DNA of 64,000 nucleotides from Escherichia coli (GCF_003018115.1 NZ_CP027457.1); one strand, 5' to 3'. Shown: positions 7,455 through 13,944, numbered from the stretch's first letter. The notes: generated by a model not told the origin, from the sequence alone. Program-made: numbers and translations.

Positions 7455-7590
7455 CGGAACCTATCGGCTGAGCGATATCGATCCGGAAGCGTATCTGCCT
7501 CATATACTGAGAGTTTTGCCGGAATGGCCTTCCAACCTGTTGATGAACTACCTCCATGGAACGTAGTGCTCACCAATAAATAAGCGTCAT
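7455..7590 (+). mobile_element. IS66-family remnant (degenerate 3' end of tnpC)
   Basis: DNA aligns with 13784..13918 (gatccggaagcgtatctgc...ccggaatggccttccaacc...ccatggaacgtag...caccaataaataagcgtca); translation ends ...PPWNVVLTNK like the IS66 TnpC C-terminus but with frame disruptions. Confidence 0.55.
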
Positions 7591-7624
7591 GCCTAACTTA
7601 AAGTAAATAGAATAGCAGATATGC

Positions 7625-8203
7625 TTAATCCTTTTTGTTGAGTGTCACTGGACCATAGACCATAAAAACACAAGTTGAACCAGATACTCCCCTATAACCT
7701 CCCTGTCCATCGCCGAGATAACAGGCAAGAGCAGTAAATTCCCAGGCATCATCCATAGACGCAGCAATTTTGCGTGTGGTTAGTGTTTCTTTGCCATATT
7801 GCTCACCAAAGTCGTGCACGCGCCGGGCATATTCTCCAAGTGACTCGCTGACTGACGGATGGTCCCACCCCCATAACCAGGTGCTGTCTTCAGTATCGTA
7901 AGTGCCAACCACTTGAACAGGTGCTGTGACCATGATCTCTTTTTCATCATTGGTGAAGGTGATTGTACCTGTATTAAGATCAACATCCCACGCAGCAGTA
8001 TCAAGTCCCCACATTTCTATAGCGGCTTGTGTGAGTAACTGCATTTCGTTATTCGCTCGTGCAATTGTGAGATCTGGCTCTGAAAGAATTGCTGTGTTAG
8101 CACTGGAATCTTTATTCTTTCTGCCAAAAAGCTTCTTGAATAAATTAGTCATTCCTACTCTCCCGTTTTCTGCAAACACTTTGGCTGAATTATTAACGTT
8201 CAA
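7625..8203 (-). CDS. hypothetical protein, 192 aa, no recognised family
   Basis: Intact ORF downstream of the ykgG-like gene on the same strand; no motif recognised. Confidence 0.4.
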   Translation of the reverse strand: MNVNNSAKVFAENGRVGMTNLFKKLFGRKNKDSSANTAILSEPDLTIARANNEMQLLTQAAIEMWGLDTAAWDVDLNTGTITFTNDEKEIMVTAPVQVVGTYDTEDSTWLWGWDHPSVSESLGEYARRVHDFGEQYGKETLTTRKIAASMDDAWEFTALACYLGDGQGGYRGVSGSTCVFMVYGPVTLNKKD

Positions 8204-8641
8204 ATTTTGTCAGACATGTGTATACCCTAACCTGACATCAGGCCTGATAATGAAAAACTATCAGAATAAAATCGTCATGAGTATTTATTGAGACAAGTAA
8301 TTAAAGGTCATAGATTCATTTATGACATATTCAGGCGTGATAGCGGCATCGTGGTAGTGACTCAGTCCTTTAAACCCGCAATATAAAACGAAAAAACAGA
8401 CCGTTTTTCAGAAGATTAGCGCATTTATTGAGAAGTTTAAAGGCGTGGGAGGGCATCTTTAGTTACAAGCACCCAGACTAACCCTTGCCACAATAAACAG
8501 GCATGAACACTGACTGCTATTGTAAGGCATTAACGGAGTCCGTATTGACGCTTACGCTCAAGTCGCGACTAATACAACTAAATGAATGATTAACAGCTCA
8601 GCTAAACGGAGCTGTTAATCGTATATACATACTAAAATGTA

Positions 8642-9337
8642 TTAGCAGTCATCAATAATCAAGTAAGTTGCATGTACTGGTCCATGCACACCAACAACTT
8701 TGATCAGTTCTATATCTGCAGTAGAACTTGGGCCTCCAATCAGATTGATACAGGAAGGCAGTCGTTGTCCTTCCTGAGCCATTTCATGAAGTTTTTGCGC
8801 AAGCTGAGCCACTCGGGGGAGAATAGTGCTTTTGCGTAAAACAAATAATGATGCTTCAGGCAAAAGGCTTACTGAGCGCCCACGTTCTGGTGCGGAGAAT
8901 AAGACAATGCCTCCTGATTCTGTCAGCCCATACTCAGCGAAAACGACACCAGTTTTTGCCTTTTCAGCAAGATGGATATTTTCATCGCCCTTCTCCGGAT
9001 CCCACAGAGCAGCGTCCATTTCTTTTTGTAGCAATGGCGTAATCCCTGTATCGACCAGTCGTTGATCGTTGCTGATAATGACTGGCCCGGAACCGAACTT
9101 CCAACAGATGTCTAAGGCTGTTGATGGTGCGTTCTCAGGCGACACCAGAACACACTCGGCAAGCATCACTTCCGAGGCAAATTTAATAAACGCCTCACAG
9201 CGTTGGTCTGATGTCAACTCTGTTAAACGTGTCGTAGCCAGCGTATTTACAGGCTCCGGCATTGCTTCGGGAATATGTCTTACTGGTCTGCCAAGCTTTC
9301 TGGCGATCGCAACGAGAAATTCCTCTCTGTTTTCCAT
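8642..9337 (-). CDS. ykgG: LutC/YkgG-family lactate utilization protein
   Basis: 231-aa ORF; third gene of a lutA-lutB-lutC-type cluster, sequence consistent with YkgG/LutC. Confidence 0.7.
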   Translation of the reverse strand: MENREEFLVAIARKLGRPVRHIPEAMPEPVNTLATTRLTELTSDQRCEAFIKFASEVMLAECVLVSPENAPSTALDICWKFGSGPVIISNDQRLVDTGITPLLQKEMDAALWDPEKGDENIHLAEKAKTGVVFAEYGLTESGGIVLFSAPERGRSVSLLPEASLFVLRKSTILPRVAQLAQKLHEMAQEGQRLPSCINLIGGPSSTADIELIKVVGVHGPVHATYLIIDDC

Positions 9338-11486: not shown

Positions 11487-11535
11487 AGAAATTTCTCCTG
11501 TTGATTAATATTCCACGTCCTTTTGTTGTTTTTTC

Positions 11536-13092
11536 TCAGGCCATGAACAGGTGGTAGACAAGGCCTACTTTCAGTCCAAGAATAACAATATAAGCAAAGC
11601 AGTACTTCAGTGTTCCTGACATGATTACGCTGCCCTGACCATCCATACGGGTGGCTGAAACAGCGATAGCAATACTCTGAGGAGAAATCATTTTGCCGCC
11701 TGTTGCGCCAGATGTATTTGCGGCAGCCAGCCAGAGCGGGTCCACATGCAATTTTTCAGCCGCAGTAGTCTGCAATTTACCAAACAGAATGTTGGAGTTT
11801 GTGTCACTACCAGTAACAAATGTACCAAGAGCGCCGATAACCGGAGCAATGAAGAGGTAGGCCCCACCAGTCAGATCCACAAGGCTCTGTGCCAGAGTGC
11901 CAATCAACCCACAGACATCCATTACCGTTGCCATGGCAACAATCGCAGAAATGGCAATAATGGAGTTTTTAAGTTGTTTTACCGTGCTGACAAATACGTT
12001 TAACAGGCATGACAGGGATGCTTTCTGTATCAAGCCGCCAATAACACTGGCAATGATAATCAGAACACCGGGGGTTGCGATCCATTCAATTTTCATCGAC
12101 AGATTGCTGCCGTTACTCAGAGAGAAGGTGAGTGACGAGGCAATCTGAGACACTGCACTTTTTATCGTCGGGAACAGTGGAGAGCAAAGCAGAATGAACA
12201 GAAAGATCAGAATGTAGATTGAGCACGCACGTAACAACGCCCCACGAGAGTATGAAAGTGCGCTGGCGCTATCTGCTGAACTCTCAATAAGAAATTCAGG
12301 TTCTGTTTTTTCTTTACGGTTTTTTGCCATAAAGACTATAACGATCAGACTGACAAGACTTCCTGCGAAAGCCGGGAGCTCTGCGCCAAGATTAACAGCC
12401 ACCAGATACTGAGGTATCAATGTGCTAATACCGCACATCAGGGTAATTAACCCTACGCCTCGTATAGCTTTCATACCTCCACCGATAATCGTGACGATAA
12501 CGAAGGGGAGCAGAATGTTGAACAGTGCCAGCTGAAGAATAATCGTCCCGCTGAGTGTGGTTACAGGTAAATTAACTTGTTCAGCAAGCACGGAGACAGG
12601 TATACCGACTGCCCCAAACGCTGTAGGGACTGTATTAGCAACCAGTGATGCAATCGCTGCTTTTAGTGGGTTAAAGCCCAGTGCAATGAGTATACCTATG
12701 GGGATTGCTACCGCTGTACCGTATCCGGCGGCCGCCTCAAGAAATCCGCCAAAACACCATGAGATAAGAAGAACCTGGATGCGTTTATCGTCACTAACGC
12801 TCGCCAGAACATTTCTCAGAATATCCATGCTTTTTGTCGCATTCATCAGGTTATAGCTGTAAATGGCAGCAAGGATGACAATCACAATCGGCCACAAACC
12901 TTTGATTGCGCCGTATACCACAGCAGATCCCATATCCATAACTGGCGTCTGCCAGAAAACCCCTCCAAGGATTAGCGTGAGCAGGAGAGTGCTAAGCACA
13001 GAATAGTGTATGGGCATTTTGACTTTCAGAATCAAAATGATCATCGCCAGAAGGGGGGTAAGTCCCAGTAAAAAAAGCAGGTAATCGTGCAT
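11536..13092 (-). CDS. LctP-family L-lactate permease
   Basis: 518-aa polytopic membrane ORF with LctP hallmarks (GFLEAAAGYG, FVTGSDTNSNILF, KMISPQSIAIA); directly upstream of ykgEFG-like genes on the same strand. Confidence 0.75.
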   Translation of the reverse strand: MHDYLLFLLGLTPLLAMIILILKVKMPIHYSVLSTLLLTLILGGVFWQTPVMDMGSAVVYGAIKGLWPIVIVILAAIYSYNLMNATKSMDILRNVLASVSDDKRIQVLLISWCFGGFLEAAAGYGTAVAIPIGILIALGFNPLKAAIASLVANTVPTAFGAVGIPVSVLAEQVNLPVTTLSGTIILQLALFNILLPFVIVTIIGGGMKAIRGVGLITLMCGISTLIPQYLVAVNLGAELPAFAGSLVSLIVIVFMAKNRKEKTEPEFLIESSADSASALSYSRGALLRACSIYILIFLFILLCSPLFPTIKSAVSQIASSLTFSLSNGSNLSMKIEWIATPGVLIIIASVIGGLIQKASLSCLLNVFVSTVKQLKNSIIAISAIVAMATVMDVCGLIGTLAQSLVDLTGGAYLFIAPVIGALGTFVTGSDTNSNILFGKLQTTAAEKLHVDPLWLAAANTSGATGGKMISPQSIAIAVSATRMDGQGSVIMSGTLKYCFAYIVILGLKVGLVYHLFMA

Positions 13093-13450
13093 GTCATTTC
13101 CTTAAACGAAAACAAAGTCAGCATCATTACTGTGGTTATTGATAGTTTCCACGCCCTGTCGGACGAGAGTGTTTATTTATCAGGGGGAGAATGAGTATCG
13201 CCTCCAAAATTGGGATGTTCTTATAAAGTATTTTTTAGTTTAAAAAATATAGCTGAATCGTTTCATTGTTATCTTCCATGAATAAATGTTATGAAATAAT
13301 ACTTTTTGGGTATTTTTTGTTTATGCGTGTAACACTTGTGTGCTATCCCGATATAACCTTAAGACTGGAGTTGCAACTGGAGCTCGTCGAAAATCAACGC
13401 CCAAATCCTCGACAAATGGAGAAAGAGAATGAGCAATATCACCAGGAATA

Positions 13451-13944
13451 GGTAAGCGTCAACGGGGATGAAATACGGGGATTACCGGAGTCAGAGCGTC
13501 TTGCCGTCAGGCAGCAGCGAAGCAAAGTGTTACTAACGTCACTGCATGAATGGATGGTGGAGAAGAATGGTACGCTGTCGAAAAAATCCAGACTGGGCGA
13601 AGCGTTCAGCTATGTACTGAATCAGTGGGATGCCCTCTGTTATTACAGTGATGACGGTCTGGCGGAGGCGGATAATAATGCTGCGGAAAGAGCGCTTCGT
13701 GCAGTCTGTCTCGGAAAGAAAAACTTTATGTTCTTTGGCAGCGATCACGGCGGCGAGCGTGGAGCACTGTTGTACGGGCTGATCGGCACCTGCCGTCTGA
13801 ACGGTATCGATCCGGAAGCGTATCTGCGCCATATCCTGAGCGTACTGCCGGAATGGCCTTCCAACCGAGTTGATGAACTCCTGCCATGGAACGTAGTACT
13901 CACCAATAAATAAGCGTCAATACGGTGCTCCGTTGACGCTTACC
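13451..13944 (+). mobile_element. Internally deleted IS66-family element with both terminal inverted repeats
   Basis: GGTAAGCGTCAACGG at 13451..13465 and its reverse complement at 13930..13944 flank a 3' tnpC fragment; no matching 8-bp target duplication in the flanks. Confidence 0.6.
13527..13913 (+). pseudogene. IS66 transposase TnpC, C-terminal fragment
   Basis: Translation ...DNNAAERALRAVCLGKKNFMFFGSDHGGERGALLYGLIGTCRLNGIDPEAYLRHILSVLPEWPSNRVDELLPWNVVLTNK matches the C-terminus of IS66-family transposases; N-terminal ~400 aa absent. Confidence 0.7.

Follow-up and report, generated by a model that had tools for sequence, protein, structure and literature searches.

IS66-family scars around the L-lactate genes of an Escherichia coli cdiBA island and their relation to plasmid-borne composite transposons

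On the chromosome of Escherichia coli NZ_CP027457.1 (GCF_003018115.1), positions 7455-13944 of the window, by which we mean the whole 64,000-nt stretch of DNA analyzed here, hold an L-lactate utilization module (lutCBA-lldP) set between two remnants of IS66-family insertion sequences (ISs), within a genomic island that has cdiA/cdiB on the left, island backbone genes on the right and ycdU adjoining. We consider it probable that this region is a patchwork of recombination scars in the cdiBA island rather than a two-ended IS66 transposon, and that a chromosome like that of the window was the donor of transposons found on plasmids. The evidence also leans towards a model where the IS66 family builds working composites from mismatched ends, in this case capturing a piece of the cdiBA island together with the L-lactate genes onto conjugative IncI1 and IncF plasmids.

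Homology was assessed by blastn/megablast and MAFFT and domains by Pfam, with gene names taken from the NCBI PGAP annotation, and comparisons were made with a collection of 5,426 complete E. coli genomes, with plasmids also drawn from PLSDB, and with GTDB species representatives and metagenome contigs; comparison loci carry L labels (L005, p3RM8082; L006, pMB7355_2; L008, the 13E0767 chromosome; L009, pTW10590_133; L017, pJNE120442-1). Window positions 7331-13943 recur on IncI1 and IncF plasmids at 99.9% identity, with 4-7 single-nucleotide polymorphisms in 6.6 kb, 4-5 of which are common to all plasmid copies. On these plasmids the block is preceded by a complete ISCro1, the right end of which abuts the equivalent of 7331, and the second remnant, hereafter mini-ISEc23, is interrupted by a third IS66-family element (2,436 bp) flanked by GAAAAAAT, a sequence present in single copy in the window (13580-13587). 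The IncI1 unit (L004 and L007, also L012 and L013) measures 11,760 bp, is bounded by the left end of ISCro1 and the right end of ISEc23, and has AGTTTTTT on both sides, and the IncF unit of L006 extends over 11,397 bp from the ISCro1 left end to the right end of the third IS, flanked by TATTCCAC. Empty sites, in which the flanks are rejoined with one copy of the repeat, match over 400/400 nt in many IncI1 plasmids, as does that of the IncF unit, located inside a thermonuclease gene, in many IncF plasmids (400/400 nt). Because 8-bp duplications and matching empty sites occur together at two different sites, two independent composite transpositions can be distinguished. To judge from these boundaries, the ISEc23 right end at 13943 appears to have been a working transposon end on the IncI1 plasmids. 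The junction of mini-ISEc23 with its left flank is found on four plasmids of the E. coli collection and on three from PLSDB (CP057972.1, one of E. fergusonii and one of ECOR 3), so that the carriers of the plasmid units comprise E. coli (including ECOR 3) and E. fergusonii; RCS85_pI of ECOR 3 and pRHB26-C03_2 are among the IncI1 carriers. A literature search returned no description of a lactate-carrying IS66 composite, nor of heterologous-end use in the IS66 family.

Between ISCro1, ISEc23 and the third IS, similarity is 70-76% and confined to patches; their right ends nevertheless share the pattern GTAAGCG-N11-(A/C)ACCGTATTGA, which makes cross-recognition of ends plausible. The tnpC gene of ISCro1 is intact in L006, L007 and L013 and that of the third IS is frameshifted in every copy, pointing to the ISCro1 TnpABC proteins as the likely actors.

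The direction of transfer can be read from the left boundary of the cargo. The first 104 bp of the plasmid cargo (7331-7434) come from the cdiB upstream region, and at least 462 genomes have this DNA in continuity with cdiB; over 7150-7433, identity across this contiguous stretch is 95-99% in at least 462 E. coli genomes, and the native cdiB upstream sequence parts from the window only at 7434/7435. Position 7331 is itself no junction in the window, where 7331-7338 reads GCTGAAAT, the site abutted by ISCro1 in the plasmid derivatives, and the window lacks both ISCro1 and the third IS, with uninterrupted native sequence and single copies of both target sequences. Since the cargo starts in cdiB upstream DNA and both IS targets are uninterrupted here, we take a window-like chromosome to be the donor and the window to represent the pre-capture state. 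The opposite course, in which the window copy derives from a plasmid transposon that integrated and then lost ISCro1 and the third IS, could draw on the 99.9% identity of the block to the plasmid copies and on a right boundary that is exactly the ISEc23 right end, as on the IncI1 plasmids. It nevertheless appears very unlikely, as the sequence across 7331 is the native cdiB upstream DNA seen elsewhere, so that loss of ISCro1 would have to restore the ancestral sequence exactly, as the third IS would have to excise precisely, leaving one GAAAAAAT, and as a truncated SPATE gene lies to the right, with no duplication.

Under the donor model, ISCro1 would have landed at 7331, upstream of cdiB, and the third IS66-family element at 13580-13587. 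An IS66-family transposase would then have used the left end of ISCro1 together with the right end of another element to move a unit of 11.4-11.8 kb into plasmids with the 8-bp duplication of the family, the right end used being the ISEc23 end at 13943 in one event (IncI1) and that of the third IS in the other (IncF). The predicted donor intermediate consists of cdiB upstream DNA, GCTGAAAT and the ISCro1 left end, with the junction ...GTCAGTGCTGAAAT|GTAAGCGCATCATT.

The right-hand arm of the IncI1 unit is mini-ISEc23, which in the window is composed and bordered as follows.

13429-13451, plus strand: 5' end (23 nt) of a gene for a peptide-ABC substrate-binding protein, truncated by mini-ISEc23
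13452-13465, plus strand: 14-nt left tip GTAAGCGTCAACGG, equal to the inverted ISEc23 right-end tip and bluntly joined to ISEc23 position 2055
13466-13943, plus strand: last 478 bp of ISEc23, 99% identical to the full copies L002 and L003, with the complete right inverted repeat ending at 13943
13944-14444, plus strand: beta-barrel (3') part of a gene for a SPATE-type serine-protease autotransporter, matching those of S6 peptidase autotransporters at 87-94%, Pfam Autotransporter 3.9e-17, a PGAP pseudogene

The 14-nt sequence GTAAGCGTCAACGG has just two exact occurrences in the 64 kb, 13452-13465 (plus) and 13930-13943 (minus), against a chance expectation of ~0.0005 for exact matches, and both tips begin with GTAAGCG, as does every reference end of the three ISs (ISEc23, ISCro1 and the third IS), a start that is reportedly typical of the whole IS66 family. 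The exact inverted tips proposed in the initial annotation are therefore real, but the 15-bp repeats and 494-bp length given there include one flanking base on each side. G13451 is target DNA, as IS-free copies of the lactate module (L008 and L009) match through it, reading ...CACCAGGAATAG|TTTAGTTG..., and matches to SPATE autotransporter genes all begin at C13944; because the left homology ends at G13451 and the right homology begins at C13944, the element spans 13452-13943, or 492 bp, with 14-bp tips. By the same alignments, the fifteenth base pair of the inverted repeat (the outer G/C) is flanking DNA and its pairing a coincidence of the flanks. The interior (13466-13943) corresponds to positions 2055-2532 of the 2,532-bp ISEc23 at 99% identity, such that homology starts at 13466 and the start of 13527 originally assigned to this remnant is that of an open reading frame (ORF) only. 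Its tnpC part (13467-13913) encodes the C-terminal 148 aa, and the translation of 13467-13910 matches Pfam DDE_Tnp_IS66 (1.2e-26, profile positions 192-283 of 284) and DDE_Tnp_IS66_C (5.6e-17).

The element had been described as an internally deleted IS66 copy retaining both terminal inverted repeats. The losses are as described, in that tnpA, tnpB and a complete DDE tnpC are absent (full ISEc23 copies have all three genes), and the right end is a genuine IS66-type end; the left 14 nt, by contrast, are not a left inverted repeat but a right-end tip. The ISEc23 left end reads GTAAGCGTAAACTG in L002, L003 and a relic in L008, and GTAAGCGTAAACCG in the 93% variant of L017 (consensus across the four, GTAAGCGTAAAC(T/C)G); the window left tip differs from GTAAGCGTAAACTG at 2/14 positions and is identical to the right-end tip. 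No ISEc23 left end bearing GTAAGCGTCAACGG was found among the top-ranked of 9,065 places in the 5,426 genomes, the best (83/85) having the canonical tip. These comparisons argue that mini-ISEc23 is not one internally deleted copy with both of its own inverted repeats. A simple internal deletion of one ISEc23 copy, which could then be mobilizable in the manner of a miniature inverted-repeat transposable element (MITE), would account for the perfect 14-bp terminal inverted repeats, their GTAAGCG start and the 99% match to the ISEc23 3' end, yet it remains unlikely given a left tip unlike every ISEc23 left end examined, which retains 14 nt only and lacks the conserved subterminal CCGTAT motif. 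Nor is there a target-site duplication around mini-ISEc23, its flanks AGGAATAG and CCTTTGCC being different, whereas full ISEc23 copies do show 8-bp duplications (CCTTTGCG in L002, CCTTTTTC in L003, ACGATGGT in L017), as tabulated for IS66-family elements (PMC3281130). The tip/interior junction is also restricted to a single locus type, being found in the E. coli collection on this chromosome and on four plasmids (5 records), always with the same left flank, with no exact match among GTDB species representatives (0) or metagenome contigs (0); a MITE would be expected in several copies scattered over different sites, each with a target duplication, and this was not seen. A microhomology-mediated deletion between the inverted-repeat tip and tnpC was likewise considered and rejected, the junction being blunt with a scattered 10/13 similarity through which megablast had extended the alignment.

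As it joins the lactate module to the truncated SPATE gene without a target duplication, mini-ISEc23 marks a rearrangement junction and not a simple insertion; the remainder of the binding-protein gene, sought in the window as a trace of such a duplication, is absent. We infer that the element may have originated by a single deletion across two inverted ISEc23 copies with their right ends outward, the deleted stretch reaching from nt 15 in the reversed copy as far as nt 2054 in the forward one. In E. coli, long inverted repeats are unstable. The junctions expected from such an inverted pair are ...CACCAGGAATAG|GTAAGCGTCAACGGAGCACC between the stub and a reversed full ISEc23, and CCTTTGCC|GTAAGCGTAAACTG beside the SPATE gene.

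On the other side of the lactate genes, the first remnant (fragment 1) belongs to a different assembly, the parts of which are the following.

5514-7280, minus strand: cdiB, left neighbor of the IS66 scars
7281-7434, no strand assigned: native cdiB upstream region, continuous with cdiB
7434-8358, no strand assigned: fragment-1/DUF6882 block, 925 bp, common to contact-dependent inhibition (CDI) orphan toxin/immunity regions of other E. coli chromosomes
7435-7589, plus strand: fragment 1, an IS66-family tnpC relic (last ~50 codons), end-less and frameshifted, stopping 6 nt past the stop codon
7625-8203, minus strand: DUF6882 gene, Pfam DUF6882 1.3e-33
8359-8530, plus strand: relic of a type I restriction hsdR 3' end, 78-88% to hsdR 3' ends of many E. 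coli
8522-8554, minus strand: ISEc23-type right-end relic of 33 nt, GTAAGGCATTAACGGAGTCCGTATTGACGCTTA, with a 15-nt exact inverted match to 13911-13925

As first noted, the two remnants are homologous IS66-family tnpC 3' ends in direct orientation, with 7436-7589 aligning to 13764-13919 at 86% over 157 bp (blastn/MAFFT) and Pfam matches in both. Alignment to IS references, which had been suggested as a check, assigns the second element to ISEc23 (99%) and gives 86% DNA identity over 157 bp between fragment 1 and positions ~2353-2508 of the same IS. Homology of fragment 1 begins at 7435 rather than 7455, and its Pfam match (DDE_Tnp_IS66_C, 1e-5, 26.1 bits) lies under the 30-bit cut-off; the fragment also carries a 1-nt frameshift. 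The lack of a recognizable inverted repeat in this fragment was also correctly reported: no terminal inverted repeat or GTAAGCG-type end is present, and ISEc23 homology stops after ...AATAAATAAGCGTCA. The 925-bp block is 99.8-99.9% identical to L010 and L011, with 66 records at >=99%; in L010 and L011 the relic is longer than fragment 1 by about 35-40 nt, and the context consists of VENN pre-toxin fragments and hemagglutinin-repeat proteins, with no lactate genes. The DUF6882 gene may be an orphan immunity gene. As the block recurs in CDI orphan regions elsewhere, fragment 1 is older than, and independent of, its link to the lactate genes, and this old end-less tnpC relic would have arrived within the block.

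These observations bear directly on whether one IS66 composite, of which the two remnants would be the decayed ends, brought the intervening ~5.9 kb into the chromosome. Such an origin would fit IS66-family tnpC 3' ends in direct orientation on both sides of the lactate genes, and the same DNA is demonstrably mobile on plasmids. We nonetheless hold it to be extremely improbable, as fragment 1 has no inverted repeat and is only 86% like the second remnant, implying different elements, and sits in a block that recurs at 99.9% on chromosomes that have no lactate genes. Five separate junctions lie within 7434-13944, the DUF6882 gene, the hsdR relic and another IS66 end relic being placed between fragment 1 and the lactate genes, and the core module begins only at 8645 and is IS1-flanked elsewhere. 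Moreover, a search for target-site duplications found no direct repeats around 7455-13944 (right flank 13944-13951, CCTTTGCC), and the left transposon end on the plasmids is ISCro1, not fragment 1. Mobilization by IS66-family elements, as initially suggested, is therefore borne out for the plasmids, in composites with 8-bp duplications and empty sites, but does not extend to the two remnants as a transposon pair, in which fragment 1 is end-less and played no visible part.

For the 33-nt relic at 8522-8554, the best alignment is with the reverse-complemented ISEc23 right end, from the tip of that end onwards, with a local alignment score of 39 compared with 25 in the opposite orientation and at most 21 for shuffled sequences. 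A combination of this relic with fragment 1 into one split IS right end was rejected, since 7434-8358 is contiguous elsewhere and diverges at 8359, and a positional homology with the lutC-side IS66 scars of L017 or L008 was dropped, the alignments being no better than shuffles. In L008, an intact hsdR adjoins lutC.

The lactate module itself comprises four genes, identified as ORFs and named by PGAP.

8642-9337, minus strand: lutC
9341-10756, minus strand: lutB
10767-11486, minus strand: lutA-type Fe-S protein gene
11536-13092, minus strand: L-lactate permease gene (lldP)

The widely shared segment is 8645-13451, which both chromosomes and plasmids carry at 99.5-99.6% identity (136 genomes with >=80% coverage). 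A check of other genomes for the module with its flanks, also proposed at the outset, recovered the window-type IS66 flanks on plasmids, there with ISCro1 at the left; elsewhere the core module has IS1 flanks without the IS66 pieces of the window (L008 and L009, for example).

Several observations weigh against the history proposed here. The window-type locus is found in 1/5,426 complete E. coli genomes, the predicted junction between cdiB upstream DNA and ISCro1 has 0 matches in metagenomes, and no donor intermediate was found. Similarly, no intermediate was found for the inverted-pair origin of the 14-nt tip, and a stub of the binding-protein gene joined to a full reversed ISEc23 was not suggested by any high-ranking genome in the junction search. 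The orientation of the 8522-8554 relic is somewhat ambiguous, the ISEc23 right end being palindromic. The acting transposase and its use of a heterologous right end are what we infer from sequence comparison. Finally, the F-type plasmid L005 carries the ISCro1-lactate-ISEc23 unit at 208-11967 with unrelated 8-mers at its ends (TGCTGCCC and GAACAAAC) and no duplication, so that some copies arrived otherwise than by simple transposition, which implies a later rearrangement or a different acquisition route.

The surroundings of the module in other loci add detail of their own. In the plasmid L009 (5138-11857) the module (99.5%) has IS1A on both sides in direct orientation, an arrangement that looks like a separate IS1 composite transposon with the same cargo, and in the chromosome L008 there is one IS1A (11159-11856). 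Left of lutC in L008 (5790-5860) lie a reversed ISEc23 left inverted-repeat relic (GGCTACATACGGTGGTCAGTTTACGCTTAC) and, 20 nt beyond it, ATAAGCGTCAATAGG, similar to the region past the ISEc23 stop codon; the lutC side of the module appears to have been reached repeatedly by ISEc23-type elements. L017, a plasmid of Shiga toxin-producing E. coli resembling pO113, has in positions 1-9515 a 90%-identical lactate module beside a full ISEc23 variant (93%, duplication ACGATGGT), with the SPATE gene espP ~1.8 kb past the latter, such that the SPATE/IS66/lactate-module neighborhood recurs there with junctions unlike those of the window.

Over 5000-16000, the window matches the E. coli 2014C-4135 chromosome (NZ_CP027310.1) at 99.9% identity, with one 1-nt difference within 7331-13943. 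A G at 8815 of the window is absent from this RefSeq assembly, where PGAP calls lutC frameshifted; lutC is an intact 231-aa ORF in the window and in all plasmid copies, and the discrepancy is either a homopolymer/assembly error in the record or a real strain difference. Directly left of the scars, the cdiB-cdiA contact-dependent inhibition locus occupies window positions 1-7280, with a tRNA-nuclease effector annotation for CdiA. An imperfect inverted repeat of 15 nt (TATCCAGTGTAAATT and AATTTACACCAGATA, window 7296-7350) straddles 7331, and the ISCro1 of the plasmid lineage sits between its arms. To the right, the SPATE fragment is followed by a gene for an SdiA-regulated-domain protein (14514-15344), and homology to the island backbone picks up again near 16233. 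From there to ycdU (16233-24719) the backbone encodes zinc-ribbon proteins, a Gp2-type protein, DUF3987 and a tyrosine integrase (~23502-24719). No tRNA genes were found in the window with ARAGORN.

Taken by itself, the window is of little significance: fragment 1 and the second element are both already called transposase pseudogenes by the NCBI pipeline (PGAP in NZ_CP027310.1), and the IS scars are ordinary IS biology, in which nothing departs from what is known. The comparative result is of modest value, as a clean sequence-level case in which IS66-family elements took up an island segment (lutCBA-lldP, an orphan DUF6882 gene and DNA from upstream of cdiB) and spread it to different Escherichia species on conjugative plasmids, with the pre-capture state of the plasmid cargo kept in this chromosome. 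It further suggests that a short IS stump with a right end only may still serve as a functional transposon end for a related transposase, a reading that bears on how annotation treats "dead" IS fragments. Lactate utilization is a plausible gut-colonization trait, and its mobility may be of ecological interest. The heterologous-end composite with lactate utilization genes is a small, as yet unnamed, new example.

With regard to known systems, the IS1-flanked lutCBA-lldP copies (L009 and L008) share with the window a module at 99.5-99.6% identity and the same 5' binding-protein stub, and differ from it in having IS1A on one or both sides, in keeping 153 nt of the stub and, in L008, in showing the reversed left inverted-repeat relic beside lutC in place of the relics of the window. 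Mini-ISEc23 resembles ISEc23 (2,532 bp, tnpA-tnpB-tnpC, 8-bp duplication) in its last 478 bp (99%), including the complete right inverted repeat, but lacks 2,040 bp, with tnpA, tnpB and ~72% of tnpC, and has a 14-nt right-end-type tip in place of the left inverted repeat and no target duplication. The plasmid units, for their part, are like IS-bounded composites of the Tn10/Tn5 type in that cargo was moved as a unit with an 8-bp duplication and identifiable empty sites. Unlike those composites, their ends come from different IS66-family members, with one arm a 492-bp stump, and the window, without the left arm (ISCro1), holds the precursor rather than the transposon.

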